DNA of 64,000 bases from Escherichia coli. GTDB lineage: Bacteria; Pseudomonadota; Gammaproteobacteria; Enterobacterales; Enterobacteriaceae. The stretch's first letter is position 1; every line of letters starts with the position of its first letter. The position numbers were made by a program, and so were the translations under genes. Location of the stretch: NCBI RefSeq assembly GCF_044324785.1, contig NZ_CP172127.1. One strand, given 5' to 3'. The notes beneath the pieces are model-generated. The model was given only the letters and a program-made list of their open reading frames with translations, had not been told where the DNA came from and searched no databases. Shown one piece after another: positions 17,669 to 52,706 of this stretch.

Positions 17669-18439
17669 GTGAAAAGTATAGTTGACCCATCGGCATTATT
17701 CATTGATTTAGGCGCGCAGAAACGTCCCACTGTGATTTCTGTTGTTGGGGCTGGGGGGAAAACCAGCTTGCTTTTTTGGCTGGCAGAACTGATCCAGGCT
17801 AGCGGCAGGCGTGTGTTAATCACTACGACGACACATATGTTTATGCCAACGTCTCACTGGCCCGTGGTTTTCTGTCGTGATCCCGCCATGCTTCCTCATG
17901 CGTCTCTTACATCCCCCATTTCATTTTGTTTTCACAGCTGGAAAGCGAACCAGGGAAAAGTGCAGGGATTTATGCCAGAAGCGATTGATGCACTGGTGCA
18001 ACGACCAGAGTGTGACGTAATTCTCATTGAGGCAGATGGCTCGCGTGGAATGCCGTTAAAAGCGCCTGATGAGCACGAACCTTGCATACCCAAAAGCAGT
18101 TGCTGCGTGATTGCTGTGATGGGAGGACATATTTTGGGCGCGAAAGTGAGCACAGAAAATGTCCATCGCTGGTCGCAGTTTGCTGATATTACCGGGTTAA
18201 CACCTGATGCAACCTTGCAACTGAGCGATCTCGTTGCGCTGGTTCGCCACCCTCAGGGCGCATTTAAAAACGTACCGCAAGGTTGTCGGCGAGTCTGGTT
18301 CATTAACCGTTTTTCTCAATGTGAGAATGCGATTGCGCAAAGCGAGCTCCTTCAACCGCTGCAACAACACGACGTAGAGGCAATCTGGCTGGGCGATATA
18401 CAAGAACATCCTGCAATCGCGCGCAGATTTGTGAATTAG
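17669..18439 (+). CDS. yqeC: Putative selenium-dependent hydroxylase accessory protein (P-loop)
   Basis: 256 aa; Walker A-like VVGAGGKTS; synteny. Confidence 0.8.
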   Translation: MKSIVDPSALFIDLGAQKRPTVISVVGAGGKTSLLFWLAELIQASGRRVLITTTTHMFMPTSHWPVVFCRDPAMLPHASLTSPISFCFHSWKANQGKVQGFMPEAIDALVQRPECDVILIEADGSRGMPLKAPDEHEPCIPKSSCCVIAVMGGHILGAKVSTENVHRWSQFADITGLTPDATLQLSDLVALVRHPQGAFKNVPQGCRRVWFINRFSQCENAIAQSELLQPLQQHDVEAIWLGDIQEHPAIARRFVN

Positions 18440-33487: not shown

Positions 33488-33561
33488 GCGGGCGTAGTTC
33501 AATGGTAGAACGAGAGCTTCCCAAGCTCTATACGAGGGTTCGATTCCCTTCGCCCGCTCCA
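33488..33561 (+). tRNA. glyU: tRNA-Gly (anticodon CCC)
   Basis: 74-nt sequence GCGGGCGTAGTTCAATGGTAGAAC...TTCGATTCCCTTCGCCCGCTCCA with cloverleaf stems, anticodon loop cTTCCCAAg and encoded 3' CCA. Confidence 0.9.
33544..33561 (+). repeat. attL core (3' end of glyU)
   Basis: Exact 18-bp copy of the sequence at 52689-52706. Confidence 0.75.
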
Positions 33562-33725
33562 AACAAACATTTCTCAACGTCTACTGAAGTCCATCAAATC
33601 CACGAATATCAAGCCTTTCAGCCATTTTCATAGCTTATTAACGTCTACTCACAACTACCAGAATCTACACACAGAAGTGTATAGTAATGCGTATAGGACA
33701 AAATTTATTTTTTGGAGCTATACAC

Positions 33726-34940
33726 ATGCTGCTTTCAGACCTTGCTATCAGGCGCGCGAAGCCGAAAGAAAAGGCTTATACACTCAATGACGGTAACGGG
33801 CTTTCGTTACTCATTGAGCCGAACGGCTCGAAAGGGTGGCGACTACGTTACAGATTTGCAGGAAAGCCCAAAATGTTGTCGTTGGGCGTGTACCCTGATG
33901 TGTCTCTGTCTGATGCCAGAGCGGCAAGGGATGAGGCTAAAAGGCTTCTTGCTGGTGGTATAAATCCAAGTGAGGCCAGAAAAGCTCAAAAGCGAGAACA
34001 GGCGAGCAAATTTGGCAATACTTTTGAGGGTATCGCTCGCGAATGGTATGAAAAGCGGATCGACAGGTGGTCATCGTCATACGCCGAGGAAATGATCGAG
34101 ACGTTTGAAAAAGACGTTTTTCCGTACATTGGCGGCAGGCCGATCGCAGAAATTAAGCCAATGGAGTTGCTTGCGGTTCTCTCCCGTCTTAATGACCGTG
34201 GGGCGACCGAAAAATTGCGTAAGGTTCGCCAGCGATGCGGCGAGGTGTTCCGGTACGCAATCATCACCGGACGCGCTGAATATAACCCCGCACCAGATCT
34301 GGCAAGCGCATTTGCTCCACACAAAAAAGAGCATTATGCCTATTTGAAGGCCGACGAACTGCCGGAATTTTTCCGCGTTCTTAATACGTACACCGGAAGC
34401 CAGATCGTCAAGCTGGGTATGCGATTATTGATTCTGACAGGGCTCCGGCCAGGGGAATTACGACAGGCAGAATGGCAGGAGATCGATTTTGATAATCGTT
34501 TGTGGGAAGTGCCTAAAGAACGAATGAAGATGCGCCGTCCTCATTGTGTGCCGCTTTCAGAACAGGCGATCGCTATTCTGGAACAGTTAAAACACATGAC
34601 GGGGCAGTATCAGTTTATTTTCCCTGGTCGAATCCAGCACAGTAAGCCGATGAGTGAAATGGCGATGAACGTGCTTATTCGTCGTATTGGCTATTCTGGG
34701 CGCGTTACTGGTCATGGGTTCCGGCACACGATGAGCACGATTTTACATGAGCAGGGCTATAACACCGCGTGGATAGAAACGCAGCTTGCACACGTTGATA
34801 AGAACTCAATTCGTGGCACGTACAATCATGCGCAATATCTGGACGGGCGGCGCGAGATGCTCCAGTGGTACGCCGACTATATGGACTCACTGGAACAGGG
34901 CGGCAACGTGGTGCATGGCAAGTTCGGAAAATGTGGATGA
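33726..34940 (+). CDS. int: Tyrosine recombinase, P4-family integrase
   Basis: N-terminus MLLSDLAIRRAKPKEKAYTLNDGNGLSLLIEPNGSKGWRLRYRFAGKPKMLSLGVYPDVSLSDAR is the P4-type integrase arm-binding signature; C-terminal catalytic residues (R..HGFRHT..Y); ATG at 33726 with GGAG RBS preferred over the ORF-track start at 33687. Confidence 0.85.
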   Translation: MLLSDLAIRRAKPKEKAYTLNDGNGLSLLIEPNGSKGWRLRYRFAGKPKMLSLGVYPDVSLSDARAARDEAKRLLAGGINPSEARKAQKREQASKFGNTFEGIAREWYEKRIDRWSSSYAEEMIETFEKDVFPYIGGRPIAEIKPMELLAVLSRLNDRGATEKLRKVRQRCGEVFRYAIITGRAEYNPAPDLASAFAPHKKEHYAYLKADELPEFFRVLNTYTGSQIVKLGMRLLILTGLRPGELRQAEWQEIDFDNRLWEVPKERMKMRRPHCVPLSEQAIAILEQLKHMTGQYQFIFPGRIQHSKPMSEMAMNVLIRRIGYSGRVTGHGFRHTMSTILHEQGYNTAWIETQLAHVDKNSIRGTYNHAQYLDGRREMLQWYADYMDSLEQGGNVVHGKFGKCG

Positions 34941-35062
34941 CTGGTTGAGTATACAGTAGTAGACTTTGAGCGACGAAAGAAAAAGCTGTGTCTAGGGTCG
35001 CTCCCGAAAAACCGTATACCTCGACGGGCTGGCACAGCCACTACAGTAGAGGACGCTGAGGT

Positions 35063-35866
35063 GTGCGTATGATTGATATTCATGCCGAATTAAACGAATA
35101 CAAAAAAGATTTTATTTCTTTACGTGAATTTCTTGAGGTCGTGCTTAAGGTCGCTGGTGATGATTATGATGTTTCAGATCTCATAACTTGGATACTCAGG
35201 AGAATAAGCGGAGAACATATCCGCCTGTACACAGTAAATGAATTTAAGCTGTTGGAATCTTTTTGTAACCCGTATCGGGATGAATTTGATTATGATGTTC
35301 TTTATAGAAATCTGGATGCGGTTCGGAAACATGGTTGTTTACCTGGTGAGAGGGATGAAAATGGTTTTCTGGTGTCCGGTTATTGGGAAGATCCCGAATT
35401 TGAGAACATTGGATTTATAAGGGGTGAAATTTTCGCAATTTTTCCCGATGTCCTTGACGCGTTAACGAAGCTGGAAGGCGCTAACTCTTCTGAAAATGAC
35501 GAGGTACAAGGACGCGATATTGAAAAGAAAGAGTTGCGTACAGAGGATGATTTATTATCCCAAATCGCAATGCTGGAAAGAGAAAACGCAGAGTTAAGGG
35601 CAAGGATAGAGCAGTTAGAGCAAGAGCGCCCGATACACTTATATAAATACTGGGATAAAGACCCATTAGCTAAGGCTATTGAGATTAGAAACAGAGAGTG
35701 GGCCAATTACGATCCAGAAAATGATTTTGCCACCAGGGGAAATCAAGAAGCGATAACCAGGGAGCTTAAGCAGTGGGGGGCAAGTAATGCTCTTGCAACG
35801 CTCATAGAGAGGACTGCCTGCCCTATTAACCGAGACAACAGCCAAAAGAACGCAAAGCCGGATTAA
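35063..35866 (+). CDS. Hypothetical protein (coiled-coil C-terminus), integrase-adjacent
   Basis: 267-aa ORF; acidic, with a heptad-like segment (LLSQIAMLERENAELRARIEQLEQE); no recognisable catalytic motif. Confidence 0.45.
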   Translation: MRMIDIHAELNEYKKDFISLREFLEVVLKVAGDDYDVSDLITWILRRISGEHIRLYTVNEFKLLESFCNPYRDEFDYDVLYRNLDAVRKHGCLPGERDENGFLVSGYWEDPEFENIGFIRGEIFAIFPDVLDALTKLEGANSSENDEVQGRDIEKKELRTEDDLLSQIAMLERENAELRARIEQLEQERPIHLYKYWDKDPLAKAIEIRNREWANYDPENDFATRGNQEAITRELKQWGASNALATLIERTACPINRDNSQKNAKPD

Positions 35867-35881
35867 CGCACCATACCGCAT

Positions 35882-36024
35882 ACCCTGAGGGTGATTTACT
35901 GTTACCCTGAGGGTATTTTTTTATCTTCCCCGTCAATTTTACCATCACCCTTAGGGTAGATTTCCTCCCGATTACCATCACCCTTAGGGTTAATTTCCTT
36001 CCGGTAACCATTAGGCCTGAGGGT
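35882..36024. repeat. Cluster of five near-palindromic 11-bp repeats (ACCCTGAGGGT / ACCCTTAGGGT) upstream of alpA
   Basis: Copies at 35882, 35904, 35947, 35980 and 36016 (the last as CCTGAGGGT); two copies sit inside a 17-bp direct repeat ACCATCACCCTTAGGGT. Confidence 0.5.
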
Positions 36025-36093
36025 ATGAAAATATTCGTTATTTCTGTGCCATGATTACCTCGTCAAATTGAGTAGACGTTATGAGGTAAATAG

Positions 36094-36291
36094 ATGTCAA
36101 ATACGCTTATTCGTTTAACAGAAGTTCAGCGTAGAACTGGATATAGCAAGGCATGGATTTATCGCCTTATGGGGCAAGGTAAATTTCCTGCATCAGTTAA
36201 AATTGGCTCGCGAGCGATTGCTTTCGTTGAAAGTGAAATTGACGAATGGATCAATCAGCGTATTGCCGAATCACGCGGAACGGCTGCCTGA
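36094..36291 (+). CDS. alpA: AlpA-family phage regulatory protein (excisionase/transcriptional regulator-like HTH)
   Basis: 65 aa; MSNTLIRLTEVQRRTGYSKAWIYRLMGQGKFPASVKIGSRAIAFVESEIDEWI matches the AlpA/Vis-type HTH pattern; RBS present. Confidence 0.8.
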   Translation: MSNTLIRLTEVQRRTGYSKAWIYRLMGQGKFPASVKIGSRAIAFVESEIDEWINQRIAESRGTAA

Positions 36292-36366
36292 TTAAATAGC
36301 TACGGGTTATTGCCCAAGCTATCCACTAGCAAATAAAAAGTAACTTAATTCGATAGCGGAGTTTTT

Positions 36367-37191
36367 ATGAAACTGCGAAAAACGCCCGTACAGGGGCAGG
36401 GCTTTGTTCGGCCTGAAAACCAGAATCTGCAAAATTTCGGCGAAATTATCCCGGTTATTTCCGGCGTTATTGGCGGGCGTGAAGCCGCTGTTGTTAGCGC
36501 AAAAGCGTTACACAAAGCGTTGGGCGTGGGAAAAGACTTCTCTACATGGATCACTGATCGTATCTCTGAATATGACTTCACCATTGGGTACGATTACTCA
36601 GTCCATAAAACAATTTCCCCAAATTTGGGGAAAAGCCCGAATGGCGAGGCTTACAGCAAGATTAAGCACTCTGGCAGACCCGGTAAAGACTATCTGTTAA
36701 GTGTCGGAATGGCGAAAGAACTGGCAATGATCGAACGCACCGAACAGGGCCGCGCCGTTCGTCAGTACTTCATCAAATGCGAGGAGGAGCTACACAAAGT
36801 AGCGCCAGTGCGTTCCGCAGCGTTACGCCGTGAACTGAAAGCCCGTATCACCGTTGCCAGCTACTTTAAGCCGATGTGTGCCGCGCTGGAGGCGTACCGC
36901 GCTGAACTGGGTAAAAACACGCTCCAGCACCACTACACCACGGAAGCCAATATGCTGGCGCGTATCGTGCTGGGTGGCATGACTGCAAAACAGTGGGCGC
37001 AGGCGAACGGCATCACAGGCGAACCACGCGACCACATGAGCACGCTGCAGCTTGAGCACCTTTCTTACCTTGAGCAGAGCAATATCACGCTGATTGAGTT
37101 AGGCCAGGACTACCACCAGCGGAAAGCTGAATTAATTCGTCTTTCGCAACGCTGGTTAGCCCGCCGCATGGAGGTGAGCAGCCATGCGTAA
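36367..37191 (+). CDS. Phage antirepressor-like regulatory protein
   Basis: 274 aa; N-terminal segment (VVSAKALHKALGVGKDFSTWITDRI) resembles AntA/Rha-type phage regulatory domains. Confidence 0.5.
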   Translation: MKLRKTPVQGQGFVRPENQNLQNFGEIIPVISGVIGGREAAVVSAKALHKALGVGKDFSTWITDRISEYDFTIGYDYSVHKTISPNLGKSPNGEAYSKIKHSGRPGKDYLLSVGMAKELAMIERTEQGRAVRQYFIKCEEELHKVAPVRSAALRRELKARITVASYFKPMCAALEAYRAELGKNTLQHHYTTEANMLARIVLGGMTAKQWAQANGITGEPRDHMSTLQLEHLSYLEQSNITLIELGQDYHQRKAELIRLSQRWLARRMEVSSHA

Positions 37192-38164: not shown

Positions 38165-38362
38165 TTACTCCTGCTCTTTGGCCTTCCGGCGCTGTTCATA
38201 TTTTAATTTGCGTCCACAGGCATCTAAGACCCATGCGGAAAAATTAGCACTAGGATTAGTTAATTTTTCTTGTTCAACACTGGCATCAATCCCATCTATA
38301 AGCTCGTGCGGGAATCGAATATTTTTCTTTGCTGATTTGTTGTTTGTGTTTCCGCTAGACAT
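38165..38362 (-). CDS. Small hypothetical protein, candidate regulator divergent from the replication operon
   Basis: 65-aa minus-strand ORF whose 5' end abuts the operator-like palindromes at 38391-38469. Confidence 0.3.
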   Translation of the reverse strand: MSSGNTNNKSAKKNIRFPHELIDGIDASVEQEKLTNPSANFSAWVLDACGRKLKYEQRRKAKEQE

Positions 38363-39023: not shown

Positions 39024-39326
39024 ATGAAGAAGATTAAATTTACTGGCTTAAATGCCAGCGGACAGACTCACCCGAAAATCAGGATCGGGGATATTTTCCG
39101 GGATAAATATGGTGACAGCGTGGTTATTAATTCCGTGTATGAACGGCACATTACATACCGCCGCGCAGGGTACGACTATGACTGTGTGATGCCCGTTCAT
39201 CAGTTCCGGCGTGATTTTTCACTGGTATGTGCAGTACCACGCAGTAAGCCCACCAGTAAAGAGAAAGCACGGGCAAATATTCAGGTAATAAAGAACATGA
39301 TTAACGCATTCAGGGGCAAGAAATGA
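39024..39326 (+). CDS. Hypothetical protein
   Basis: 100-aa ORF; stop overlaps the start of the 708-aa replication gene (ATGA). Confidence 0.4.
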   Translation: MKKIKFTGLNASGQTHPKIRIGDIFRDKYGDSVVINSVYERHITYRRAGYDYDCVMPVHQFRRDFSLVCAVPRSKPTSKEKARANIQVIKNMINAFRGKK

Positions 39327-48273: not shown

Positions 48274-51029
48274 TGAAACAGGCATGTGTTGAAGCTATTG
48301 CGCAGACACTTGGTCGCCAGCCAAAGGCTGATGAGCTGAAAAATATCGAAGATCGTATCAAAGAAGCAGTGCAACATGTGCACAGAAAGAATGCAAAAGA
48401 AGGCAAAAGTGGTATTCCTGATGCTCAAACATACATGGATGCTGCAGAACTGGTACGCCAGCGTGTGGTTCATGATGTGTACAAGAAAAGACAGCGTGTT
48501 GCCCAGAATGCGATCGCCATCAGTAAAATTACTGACACTCTCGATGCTAACATCCCGCCTGATCAGCAGACACCTGTTAATTTGCAGCAGTTTATTTTTG
48601 CTGGCCGACGATCGAGAGACAAAGCTGATATCTCCGTTGCTTCTGCTGAAGAGCTTGCAATTGGGGCATATCAGGACTGGTCCCGTCAGCTCAGTGCTGA
48701 ACTTCTAAAAGCAGGTGATGACGTCCGCAAATTCTTCGAGCAGAGCAGGGCGCTTGGAGAGCAGCGGTTTCGGAGTGTATTCGACAGGCAGGCGGCAAAG
48801 TCTGCACAACTCCAGATCCTGAAAGAAATATATGGCGAAGATACCGGGAATCCCCTGGCGAAGAAAATTGCACAGATTTGGAAGGATGTAACAGGCCGTG
48901 TTCGTCATGAGATGAACGACAATGGCTTTGACATAGGCCTGCGAGAAGACTGGCATACGCCATATGTGGATGATGCTGACCTTATTCGCAATGCCGGGCG
49001 CGAAGAATGGCTGGCATCGTTACCAGTGGCAGAGCAAGCTACAGCACGTCTTTCAGGTCGCCAGCCACCGATTGAGTTTGCCCGCCAGAAATGGGTTGAT
49101 GACGCTTACAACACGCAGGATCGCAGCAATTACGTTAATCCTGACGGCAGCATTATGAATGACGTCGAGTACCGTCAGGCACTGGAAGCGATCTTTGAAA
49201 CGAAGGCCACTGATGGGGCAAACAAAATTGAGCCTGGTACATTTATGGGAGCCGGAGGAATAAAGAGCCGTGGTTCTCAGCACAGGGTGATGGCGTTCAA
49301 GGATGCGCAGTCACACTTCGCCTATATGGAACGATACACTCAGCAGCCGCTGGTGGGGGTGATGATGTCGCACCTGCAATCATCATCCAGGGATTTGGGC
49401 GTCGTTAAAGCCTTTGGTCCGGACGCCGAAAGAAACTTTTCCCTGGTACTGGATCGCATCTATAAGCGCGCAGTAACAGGCGGGAAACGCAAAAAAGAAA
49501 TGGAGGATGAGGCCAAATTAGTTGCCCGTATGTTCAACTCAATGGCTGGCCTAAATGGTGTCGCTTCATCGAGTGTGTTCTCTTCAGCAGTTGGTGGTCT
49601 GCGTAACCTGATGACCAGCGCCATGCTTGGCACCAGCGTACTGACAGCAACCAGCGACCAGGCAATTATGCGGGCAAATGCGCAGGCGCTGGGCTTTACC
49701 CGTGGTGGAATGCGGCTTTCCGTTAACACTATCAAAAACCTGTTTAGTGGAGATGCCAAAAAGGCGAATGCTGAACTCGGTCTGCTGGTGGATTCACATG
49801 CTGCTGTGGTTTCGAAAATGGGCGGGTTTGACTTGTCTCGCGGCATAACTGGCTGGTTCGCAGAGAAGACACTGAAGTGGTCCGGGCTGATCGCTATGGA
49901 CCGCGCAAACAAAGCGTCGTTTGGTCTCCTGATGTACAAAAACATTGGCGAGCTGACCAGAAAATTTAAGACGCTGGACGATATGAAAGGAACCGATAAA
50001 ACCATTCTGGCTAACAAGGGATGGAGCAATGAGGACTGGGCCATCATGGCAGCGGCAGAACTCAGGCCGATGACTACTGCCGGGCATATGGGGATGACGC
50101 CAGACGCGATTTACGCTGTGCCCGATAACGTAATAGCCGACATTATGGCAGACCGTATTACCCGGATTCGTGCCGGGAGTGAAAAGGCACTGGCAGCCCT
50201 TGGAGATCTCCCTCCAGAACGCCTGAAACGGATGAAAGAAGCATTCGACGCTGAGGCTGAGCAGACCATCACGCGCATGATTCGTAATGCACGCGCTGAA
50301 GCAGCCCAGAAATTGCTGGGAATTACGCACGGTGAGATGACCAATGCTGTGACCACCGCTACGGGTATTGATACATATGCCCGTGATGATGCTGGCGAGT
50401 TAATGAAGAGCTTCATGCTCTTCAAAACAACCCCATTTGCTGGATTTCGGCAACTTGTTAACAGAACACGGGATTTGGACACCGTTCCGGCCATTAAATT
50501 TCTGGCCTCATATATCGGGGGAACAACTCTTGCTGGTATGTTTGCGATCCAGATGAACAGTTTGTTAAATGGTAATGATCCGCTGGATATGACAAAACCA
50601 ACCACATGGGTTCAGGCTTTACTGAAAGGTGGTTCGTTCGGTATCTACGGTGATTTTATTTTCCAGGACCATACGCAATATGGCTCCAGAATCGGTGCCA
50701 CTATGGGTGGCCCTGTGTTGAGCTTTGCAGAGCAGTTAACAAAATTACTGATTACTAACCCACAGAAGGCTCTACAGGGTGAAGAAACATCATTCGGTGC
50801 CGATGCACTGAAAACAGCCCGCATGATCACCCCATTCGCAAACCTGTGGTATGCGAAAGCGATAACCAATCACCTGATATTGCAACAACTTCAGGAGATG
50901 GCAAACCCTGGTTACAATGATCGAGTAAGGGACCGCGCGCAACGGGAGTTCGACATAACGAGTTGGTGGGAACCGGGTGCTATTGCGCCACGTAGAGCAC
51001 CGGATTTTGGAAAGGCGGTGGGGAACTGA
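48273..51029 (+). CDS. Large hypothetical protein (918 aa), cargo operon gene 3
   Basis: ATG at 48273 overlaps the upstream stop (TAATG) with a GAGGA RBS; the ORF-track start at 48252 is a GTG in the same frame; no recognisable catalytic motif. Confidence 0.6.
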   Translation: MKQACVEAIAQTLGRQPKADELKNIEDRIKEAVQHVHRKNAKEGKSGIPDAQTYMDAAELVRQRVVHDVYKKRQRVAQNAIAISKITDTLDANIPPDQQTPVNLQQFIFAGRRSRDKADISVASAEELAIGAYQDWSRQLSAELLKAGDDVRKFFEQSRALGEQRFRSVFDRQAAKSAQLQILKEIYGEDTGNPLAKKIAQIWKDVTGRVRHEMNDNGFDIGLREDWHTPYVDDADLIRNAGREEWLASLPVAEQATARLSGRQPPIEFARQKWVDDAYNTQDRSNYVNPDGSIMNDVEYRQALEAIFETKATDGANKIEPGTFMGAGGIKSRGSQHRVMAFKDAQSHFAYMERYTQQPLVGVMMSHLQSSSRDLGVVKAFGPDAERNFSLVLDRIYKRAVTGGKRKKEMEDEAKLVARMFNSMAGLNGVASSSVFSSAVGGLRNLMTSAMLGTSVLTATSDQAIMRANAQALGFTRGGMRLSVNTIKNLFSGDAKKANAELGLLVDSHAAVVSKMGGFDLSRGITGWFAEKTLKWSGLIAMDRANKASFGLLMYKNIGELTRKFKTLDDMKGTDKTILANKGWSNEDWAIMAAAELRPMTTAGHMGMTPDAIYAVPDNVIADIMADRITRIRAGSEKALAALGDLPPERLKRMKEAFDAEAEQTITRMIRNARAEAAQKLLGITHGEMTNAVTTATGIDTYARDDAGELMKSFMLFKTTPFAGFRQLVNRTRDLDTVPAIKFLASYIGGTTLAGMFAIQMNSLLNGNDPLDMTKPTTWVQALLKGGSFGIYGDFIFQDHTQYGSRIGATMGGPVLSFAEQLTKLLITNPQKALQGEETSFGADALKTARMITPFANLWYAKAITNHLILQQLQEMANPGYNDRVRDRAQREFDITSWWEPGAIAPRRAPDFGKAVGN

Positions 51030-51376: not shown

Positions 51377-52045
51377 AACGAATGCCACCGCCGCCCGGGC
51401 GGGAATTCGCAGATAAAAAAGCACGCTGCACGGTTTTATTAATACTTATACCATTAGGATTGATCCTTCAATGGACAATCCTTCCATCGTGTGGCCAGCC
51501 ATTCATATTCTTTGTCTTTTCTTCAGTATCGGCTTTGCATCTTCTACACCCTGAAAGATGTCGTTTTATGGTGTATCTGATGATTTATTCCCTAACAATA
51601 GATATTCGAAAAATTAATCAGTTAAAACAATTATTTGGATAATTTCAGGTAAAACTATCTTAATCTTCTGGTGGATCTCAATGCGTAGTGACGGTATCGG
51701 GATTAAGGGCGTGGATATTCGCGATATATGCCGCTACACCCCTCAACAGTAATAGATATGAGCTTTTCACGCTCTCCTTTCACTGCTGAGAACGGCAACA
51801 ACGTGCCACAGGAACGCGCTGTAATCGATTCTGACGCACTTAATTGCGTTGGGTAATGGTTTTTGCCAGCCTGTGGGGGTAACTCTGTTTTATGAGGCTT
51901 TGGCTATAGTGCAAAAATACACTTTGTCTTGCCTCTCAATTTGATGAGACTGGAACGACAACAGGACAGACCACCAGCAACAGTTACCGTATTCAGCCGT
52001 TCTGTGGCACCAGTGGAACTATCAACCCCTGCTTTCAGCAATGTG

Positions 52046-52203
52046 TTTGCGGGTTATTTTGGGGCGTTTGCGGGTTATTTGGGATGTTTTGCGGGTTATG
52101 TGATGCTTGAATAATGAACAGTGTATTTTGCAACATATTGATACTAAAGAACAAAAAATAGTTAGCATACTAAGATAACCCGGTAACCCGCATAACCCGC
52201 ACT
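52046..52203. repeat. Iteron cluster B: three inverted and three direct copies of the same (A/G)TAACCCGC motif
   Basis: TTTGCGGGTTAT at 52046, 52067 and 52088; ATAACCCGG at 52175, GTAACCCGCA at 52183, ATAACCCGCAC at 52193; same motif as cluster A, ~10.5 kb away, just inside attR. Confidence 0.55.
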
Positions 52204-52688: not shown

Positions 52689-52706
52689 TTCCCTTCGCCC
52701 GCTCCA
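52689..52706 (+). repeat. attR core (duplicated glyU 3' end)
   Basis: Exact 18-bp copy of the glyU 3' end, 19.1 kb downstream of the tRNA. Confidence 0.75.

Follow-up and report, generated by a model that had tools for sequence, protein, structure and literature searches.

The host island

The window, that is, the whole stretch of 64,000 nucleotides analysed here, includes 1.4 kb that is 100% identical to several complete genomes of E. coli. A 19-bp direct repeat, corresponding to the 3' end of tRNA-Gly(CCC), occurs at positions 33544 and 52689 and bounds an island of 19 kb; the first copy (33544-33562), at tRNA-Gly, represents attL, and the second, at 52689, attR. The island begins with int, which encodes a P4-type integrase (33726-34940, plus strand), followed by orf2, an array of palindromes, alpA, and the AntA and Bro-N genes. 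Downstream of Bro-N lie two small minus-strand genes (one of the YlcI/YnfO family), an Icd-like gene, and DUF4222, and the island ends with genes for a DUF927 primase (39323-41449, plus strand), SSB, ProQ/FinO, and PerC, and with large hypothetical cargo genes. The plus-strand int-alpA-primase backbone, the end repeats, and the size (within approx. 10-20 kb) are those of Gram-negative PICIs, and the gene order agrees with that of EcCICFT073. Judged by these sequence features, the island is a Gram-negative PICI-type phage satellite integrated at tRNA-Gly.

Other elements of the island are of interest in their own right. The int-alpA RNA motif (Rfam RF02996) is found at 34985-35052 on the plus strand (46.9 bits, compared with a gathering score of 35.8); its position, past the integrase stop codon and before the orf2 start, is immediately 5' of orf2, not of alpA. 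Iterons of the TAACCCGCA/TGCGGGTTA family occur at 41473-41600, directly 3' of the primase gene, and again at 52045-52201, just inside attR, with 9- and 21-bp periods. The former are likely to be the satellite origin and the latter a second cluster, an arrangement reminiscent of ori and crr of P4. Gram-negative PICI origins have been reported downstream of pri (PMC10111431). At the cargo end (approx. 43685-51000, plus strand), three consecutive large hypothetical genes encode proteins of about 840, 690, and 900 or more amino acids (sizes taken from the RefSeq annotation of an identical island); they could constitute a defence system, which is a frequent finding in satellite hotspots.

The palindrome array

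The intergenic region between orf2 (35069-35866, alternative start at 35063, plus strand), the integrase-adjacent gene, and alpA (36094-36291, plus strand) is where an earlier note on this DNA had correctly located a group of near-palindromic repeats. The 11-bp palindrome ACCCTNAGGGT occurs there in four exact copies, which start at 35882, 35904, 35947, and 35980. Sites 1 (35882-35892) and 2 (35904-35914) read ACCCTGAGGGT with G as the central base, and site 2 is followed by a run of seven T residues; sites 3 (35947-35957) and 4 (35980-35990) read ACCCTTAGGGT with T at the centre. The fifth, promoter-proximal site (36014-36024) is the degenerate GGCCTGAGGGT, whose counterpart in most other lineages reads TGCCTGAGGGT. 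The note had counted five copies of one motif: five sites are indeed present, but they are not equal, as the fifth carries two mismatches, both in its left half. The 17-bp direct repeat that it described understates the repetition in the region, since sites 3 and 4 are embedded in the first and second copies of a 33-bp tandem unit (35939-36011, plus strand; 2.2 copies, 87% match) that has an exact core of 19 nt, TTACCATCACCCTTAGGGT. Sites 1 and 2 have a 17-nt repeat in common, with an 88% match. The start-to-start spacings of the five sites are 22, 43, 33, and 34 bp, that is, near multiples of 11; on this lattice of approx. 11/33 bp, all sites would face the same side of the helix.

Four exact copies and one degenerate copy within 143 bp make this dyad-symmetric motif clearly over-represented in the promoter-proximal intergenic region. 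When one mismatch at most is allowed, the 64-kb window contains a single match outside the array, at 18249; dinucleotide shuffles yield 0.91 ± 0.89 matches per 64 kb, and none of 100 shuffles gave five or more. The repeats are therefore real. No further copy of ACCCTNAGGGT was found in the island outside the array in the scan of the 64-kb window, and a single promoter is therefore the expected target.

The array was compared among 42 distinct alpA upstream regions, obtained from a pattern scan of viral contigs and from loci fetched through AlpA and orf2 homologues, in which AlpA is 72-100% identical. The spacers of these regions are unalignable; nevertheless, the ten specified bases of ACCCTNAGGGT are kept, while the central base takes all four values. 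Spacings of 22/32/43/34 persist, as do site centres at -109, -142 or -151, -174, and -206 from the alpA ATG and a degenerate proximal site at -75. In particular, -109, occupied in the window by the centre of site 4, is the position most conserved among lineages, and site 5 is centred at -75. Among E. coli islands (L002-L005), the 33-bp unit is present in one, two, three, or four copies, and one length variant lacks the 22-bp unit; the total thus ranges from three to seven sites per array, and such changes by whole units keep the helical phase. Conservation of core, spacing, and position amid diverged flanks is what the footprint of a symmetric (dimeric) DNA-binding protein would leave, and the array is in all likelihood a genuine protein-binding operator. 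The general idea of the earlier note, that alpA is regulated through a group of protein-binding sites, finds good support in the persistence of palindrome, spacing, and distance from the ATG. Of 5426 complete E. coli genomes, at least 147 carry the orf2/array module, which also occurs in Salmonella, Serratia, Yersinia, and less closely related hosts.

Copies of the same 11-mer occur in another setting. Pairs of ACCCTNAGGGT about 55 bp apart form a dispersed repeat in Chloroflexota MAGs among the matches listed (L053-L129), including Ca. Leptovillus, Ca. Leptofilum, and Ardenticatenaceae, with dozens of copies per genome, and a 127-kb viral contig (L047) holds 21 copies in 14 kb. These copies are unrelated to the PICI module.

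The orf2 protein and its family

The orphan gene orf2 encodes a protein of 265 amino acids, the proposed binder of the array, which is labelled 'hypothetical' or 'coiled-coil domain-containing' in RefSeq. It consists of a variable N-terminal domain, a coiled coil (approx. residues 160-188), and a conserved C-terminal domain (codons at 35618-35833, plus strand; ERP...W...A.AIE.VACPI.R). Its homologues are 33-98% identical overall and have the C-terminal module alone in common, the pattern of which is ERPIL..Y..DDPL..AI..R...W..Y......P.Q..I...L.......A.AIE.VACPI.R. A profile search of 1.84 billion representatives recovered the module in 143 clusters at 50% identity; it is always C-terminal, in proteins of 150-400 residues whose N-termini are unrelated.

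None of 65 members of the C-terminal-domain family has a Pfam match, and a PDB sequence profile search gave E = 0.009 to an unrelated coiled coil. Comparison of the orf2 protein with Pfam, PHROGs, and PDB sequences returned coiled-coil noise only. One homologue is labelled 'bZIP transcription factor' in RefSeq, an artefact of the coiled coil, since the segment preceding the zipper is acidic. According to AlphaFold2, a structured yet variable N-terminal domain is followed by a long helix and then by four short helices packed into a compact C-terminal bundle; the pLDDT is 72 for the full-length protein and 87 for the C-terminal 95 residues. The long helix corresponds to the coiled coil that is also flagged by the Pfam noise matches and the RefSeq names. 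In such a model, a parallel coiled coil preceding the domain would hold two copies of it close together, which is compatible with abutting 5-bp half-sites. Neither the orf2 family nor the palindrome motif is described in the literature searched.

The palindromes accompany orf2 and not AlpA

Sites are found within 250 nt after the stop codon (at least one site) for 27 of 34 distinct orf2-family C-termini. On average, the 250 nt 3' of orf2-family stop codons contain 2.33 sites, compared with 0.0023 in controls, an approx. 1000-fold difference (48 distinct downstream regions and 34 distinct C-termini, with one mismatch at most; 879 control windows from the same loci). The motif follows orf2-family genes in Enterobacterales, in low-GC Pasteurellaceae-like contigs, and in high-GC contigs. 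Moreover, distant relatives of orf2 (approx. 20-25% identical) at five loci in other bacterial groups (L039, L236, L239, L240, and L290) also have it: these proteins are of the AVERVACPI[ND]R type and come from higher-GC hosts, and ACCCTNAGGGT-like sites begin a few bases past the stop codon. In L238-L240, the gene after the distant orf2 relative encodes a divergent AlpA type, and in L239 and L240 the motif precedes this AlpA, which has a different recognition helix. No alpA comes next in L236, where the motif precedes a 500-bp gap and phage genes, or in L039, where a convergent cI-like repressor gene follows the motif.

The reverse situation is also found. The invariant helix and wing residues of AlpA (TGYSKAWIYRL...KIGSRAIAF) accompany the array in the window and in L172, and the same residues are present without an array in Salmonella (L175-177) and E. 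coli (L229, L230, L232, and L233) islands. In the Salmonella islands, where AlpA is 82% identical, the intergenic region is shorter, its repeats are different, and ACCCTNAGGGT is absent; the motif is also absent from E. coli islands that encode an approx. 80%-identical AlpA and have no orf2-family gene. In these motif-less E. coli islands, the int-alpA slot is either empty or occupied by a gene for a DUF6387 protein or for another orphan. In EcCICFT073, the slot is empty, and both orf2 and ACCCTNAGGGT are absent. Since orf2 and alpA are almost always adjacent in PICIs, most co-occurrence data are uninformative in this respect, and the separation of the two proteins rests on about ten discordant lineages. 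In these, co-occurrence links the motif to the orf2 C-terminal domain and not to AlpA.

Canonical sites are missing for 7 of the 34 C-termini, namely the AIEI[VI]ACPINRN group, a Salmonella ..VASPINR variant, and L238. The AIEI[VI]ACPINRN group has related half-sites in the form of AGGGTGATAG inverted units, and the Salmonella variant has ACAGTAA/ATAGTA half-sites; ACCGT/ACGGT half-sites occur in L252 and L254. In all of these cases the half-sites are arranged differently from those of the canonical palindromes. Compared only by inspection, such variants look like what would be expected of a co-evolving protein-operator pair.

Other E. coli PICI lineages (L228-L231, L233, and L234) contain unrelated orphans in the int-alpA slot, each followed by inverted or direct repeats of its own. 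These include a DUF6387 protein (L228, L230, and L234), a GK.TA.K.IAG.AIAL family, and a 239-amino-acid protein with a C-terminus distantly similar to the orf2 one. The int-alpA slot may generally house lineage-specific regulators.

The alpA promoter region

AlpA (Pfam Phage_AlpA, E = 2.4e-19), the product of the gene proposed to be regulated, is the master activator in Gram-negative PICIs (PMC6092414). The alpA gene is silent until the helper phage is induced, and the trigger is a phage factor that is yet to be identified (PMC6092414); nor has a repressor of alpA been identified in these islands (PMC6092414). In both EcCICFT073 and EcCIMP1, AlpA has been shown to be an activator of the promoter of its own gene (PMC6092414, PMC11773190).

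A scan of 35700-36400 detected no consensus sigma-70 promoter. A candidate extended -10 element of the alpA promoter (PalpA), TGcCATGAT (TGCCATGAT), is located at 36047-36055 on the plus strand, and its consensus, aTGccATcAt, is kept in 17 lineages. The proximal palindrome adjoins the region 5' of this conserved TGnCATCAT element; if the candidate serves as the -10, site 5 would be centred at about -43 relative to the transcription start. In addition, a weak terminator-like hairpin after orf2 is scored at site 2, where a stem of 5 pairs closes a 3-nt loop and the T7 run follows; a U-run is absent at the four other sites.

Two further elements lie close to the alpA start. In a conserved hairpin, TTACCTCGT (36055-36063) pairs with ATGAGGTAA (36081-36089, both plus strand) and sequesters the alpA Shine-Dalgarno sequence; 10 pairs are formed in 12 lineages, and changes are one-sided (wobble), with zero double compensations. 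Were transcription to start after the candidate -10 element, the 5' arm would be present only on transcripts that read through from int/orf2, which would then be translationally silent; such silencing would resemble fold-back inhibition. The second element, TAGACGTTA, occurs in exact form only twice in the 64 kb: at 33639-33647 (minus strand), in the attL-int interval, and at 36073-36081 (plus strand), 13 nt 5' of the alpA ATG. A TAGACGTTG copy is found at 33575-33583 (minus strand), 64 bp from the TAGACGTTA copy at 33639-33647. This pair 5' of int recurs in several related islands and is absent from thrW-integrated islands, whose AlpA is the same but whose integrase differs. The TAGACGTTA/TAGACGTTG copies may serve either the integrase, as arm sites, or AlpA.

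Alternative explanations for the array

The earlier note had suggested a recombination directionality factor (RDF) or a transcriptional regulator as the binder, or else an accessory site for excision. That the palindromes are AlpA's own sites, serving positive autoregulation of PalpA and/or a role as excision factor, would accord with the self-activation of alpA in EcCICFT073 and EcCIMP1 (PMC6092414, PMC11773190) and with the fixed distance at which the array, wherever a PICI lineage has one, lies 5' of alpA. However, AlpA proteins with the same helix and wing residues are found both with and without the array, and lack the motif where orf2 is lacking; conversely, the array persists beside other AlpA types (L239 and L240) or with none (L039 and L236), where it follows distant orf2 genes. 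AlpA/Xis-type winged-helix proteins are, moreover, characteristically monomers on direct repeats, which also counts against AlpA as the binder, and this explanation appears quite improbable. An accessory excision site is not supported by location, as 2.3 kb separate the array from attL and 16.7 kb from attR, which puts it far outside the att arms. A protein from outside the island, either a helper-phage activator or a host transcription factor, could also bind the sites, in which case orf2 would be an unrelated accessory gene. Helper phages do induce PICI alpA via an unnamed phage factor (PMC6092414), the alpA promoter looks activator-dependent, and the orf2 domain has no recognisable DNA-binding fold; on the other hand, where closely related PICIs of the same E. 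coli hosts are without orf2, they are also without the motif, mention of the motif is absent from the literature searched, and the presence of the motif after orf2 in very different hosts makes one common host or helper factor unlikely. Binding by such an external factor is accordingly given little probability.

Explanations that do without a regulatory protein fare worse. The array could work as an RNA or DNA structure, with hairpins that terminate orf2 transcription or form another RNA element: site 2 with its T7 run scores as terminator-like, the array region folds as RNA better than shuffled sequences (z = -3.6), and symmetric outer changes (GCCCTNAGGGC) are seen at two distant loci. Yet each palindrome allows just 4-5 pairs around a 3-nt loop, a single site of the five has a U-run, and the low folding energy reflects pairing between palindromes, which any repeated palindrome would show. 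Variants mostly break the symmetry (GCCCT..AGGGT, ACCCT..AGGGC, and ACCCT.ATAGT) with no compensation, and no Rfam 15 family matches 35867-36093 at its gathering score, the nearest match being the int-alpA RNA at 34985-35052. A structural role is therefore very improbable, and a role of the repeats as replication iterons of a satellite origin is more improbable still. The varying copy number of the tandem 33-bp units and a modestly AT-rich stretch between sites 2 and 3 would suit iterons, but the island has its separate TAACCCGCA/TGCGGGTTA family beside the primase gene, and the palindromes track orf2 and not the primase type (primases are 42-58% identical across motif-bearing loci). The repeats that would be expected of origin iterons, adjoining the primase gene and tracking its type, are thus not those of the palindrome array.

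Several further candidates were considered and rejected. The YlcI/YnfO-family protein (38165-38362, minus strand) lacks the motif near its own promoter and is undetected in some motif-bearing loci, and the AntA, Bro, and Rha proteins encoded 3' of alpA are swapped among islands in which orf2-array-alpA is 98-100% identical. The 'AlpA binding element' of P. aeruginosa (GGGACG) is irrelevant, as that AlpA is a Q-like antiterminator with a different fold. Clustering of a CCTNAGG restriction site (Bsu36I/Eco81I type) is unsupported, and the conserved outer bases favour a longer recognition sequence.

A possible switch controlling alpA

The orf2 protein is thus the preferred candidate: on the evidence of co-occurrence and site architecture, it is probably the binder of the array, and the palindromes probably make up an operator array with docking sites for orf2 dimers. 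The coiled coil would bring two orf2 C-terminal domains together, and domains paired in this way fit the abutting half-sites (5-1-5) and the unread central base. Dimers would then, probably in a cooperative manner, fill the phased sites that begin just past the end of orf2 and extend into the -35 region of PalpA. As the array reaches about -43 of the putative promoter, cooperative assembly would cover the RNA polymerase binding region; as int, orf2, and alpA are co-oriented, with only a weak terminator-like hairpin between them, the occupied array could both occlude PalpA and block read-through.

The sign of the regulation is less certain. Because the master activator gene alpA is silent before helper induction, the most likely role of the array/orf2 pair would be that of a gate that keeps alpA off, and repression by orf2 is a plausible, though tentative, assignment. 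Alternatively, orf2 might be a class II-type activator of alpA, as a site centred near -43 is equally typical for such activators. If orf2 is a repressor, the signal from the helper phage would probably be received by its variable N-terminal domain: a helper-phage product would act on this domain and relieve repression, alpA would fire, and AlpA autoactivation would then lock the switch.

In its most extended form, this proposal makes the orf2 family the missing master repressor of a Gram-negative PICI clade, functionally similar to Stl. The phased ACCCTNAGGGT array would be coated, and alpA silenced, by a coiled-coil dimer whose DNA-binding domain is of a kind not known before; the hypervariable N-terminus would be a receptor for the different helper-phage proteins that induce the satellite; and the other orphans of the int-alpA slot (DUF6387 and others), with their own repeats, would be alternative sensors. 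With all of these parts taken together, the proposal is speculative and somewhat doubtful.

How helper phages switch Gram-negative PICIs has been a standing question since 2018, and alpA of these islands still has no defined repressor, operator, or phage inducer (PMC6092414). The array and orf2 offer a testable cis/trans pair that is widespread among enterobacterial satellites. The cis element itself is a classical operator array, a known kind; what is new is its tie to an uncharacterised family without a known DNA-binding fold, at the point where induction of Gram-negative PICIs is controlled. Should orf2 prove to bind the array, its C-terminal module would represent a new type of DNA-binding domain, with an 11-bp palindrome as its target, the protein would be a modular sensor whose N-terminal diversity could account for helper specificity, and the natural series of one to four 33-bp units would be ready-made for studies of cooperativity. 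If orf2 is not the binder, the array would still be a handle for finding the true regulator of alpA.

Comparison with known regulatory systems

The accessory sites of RDFs (lambda Xis X1/X2, KplE1 TorI, and P4 Vis) resemble the array in that they are found near a gene of the AlpA/Xis family in an integrative element. However, they are direct repeats inside the att arms and would be expected within approx. 200 bp of the att core, whereas the array consists of palindromes located 2.3 and 16.7 kb from the two att sites. Nor do the palindromes track the AlpA protein as RDF sites would track their RDF, given that the same AlpA residues occur with and without the motif.

In its architecture, the array may resemble the phased operator arrays of cooperative plasmid and phage repressors, such as the heptads of the omega repressor, the iterons of ParR/ParG, and the Arc/Mnt operators of P22. 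These share with the array of the window short symmetric sites on one helical face in variable copy number, and they adjoin the gene of their own regulator, as the array adjoins orf2. The omega, ParR/ParG, and Arc/Mnt proteins are, however, of the ribbon-helix-helix type, and the orf2 C-terminal domain, which is predicted to be all-helical, matches none of them.

The AlpA-autoregulated promoters of EcCICFT073 and EcCIMP1 concern the same regulated gene, and these PICIs share with the island a backbone of int, alpA, YlcI/Icd-like, DUF4222, primase, SSB, and PerC genes. Compared with EcCICFT073, the array/orf2 module is an extra layer that is confined to a subset of lineages.

A functional parallel may be the master repressor Stl of the SaPIs (Gram-positive PICIs) and its operators. 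Stl, as is proposed for orf2, is a satellite-encoded regulator whose gene adjoins int and whose sites precede the gene that starts the satellite cycle; both proteins differ greatly in sequence from island to island, which would be expected of a sensor for different helper-phage proteins. Unlike Stl, orf2 has no HTH-XRE or any other recognisable DNA-binding fold, is co-oriented with the regulated gene and not divergent from it, and would control the activator gene alpA and not str/xis directly. Repression by orf2 and derepression by the phage, as proposed here, would therefore amount to the logic of Stl built from unrelated parts.
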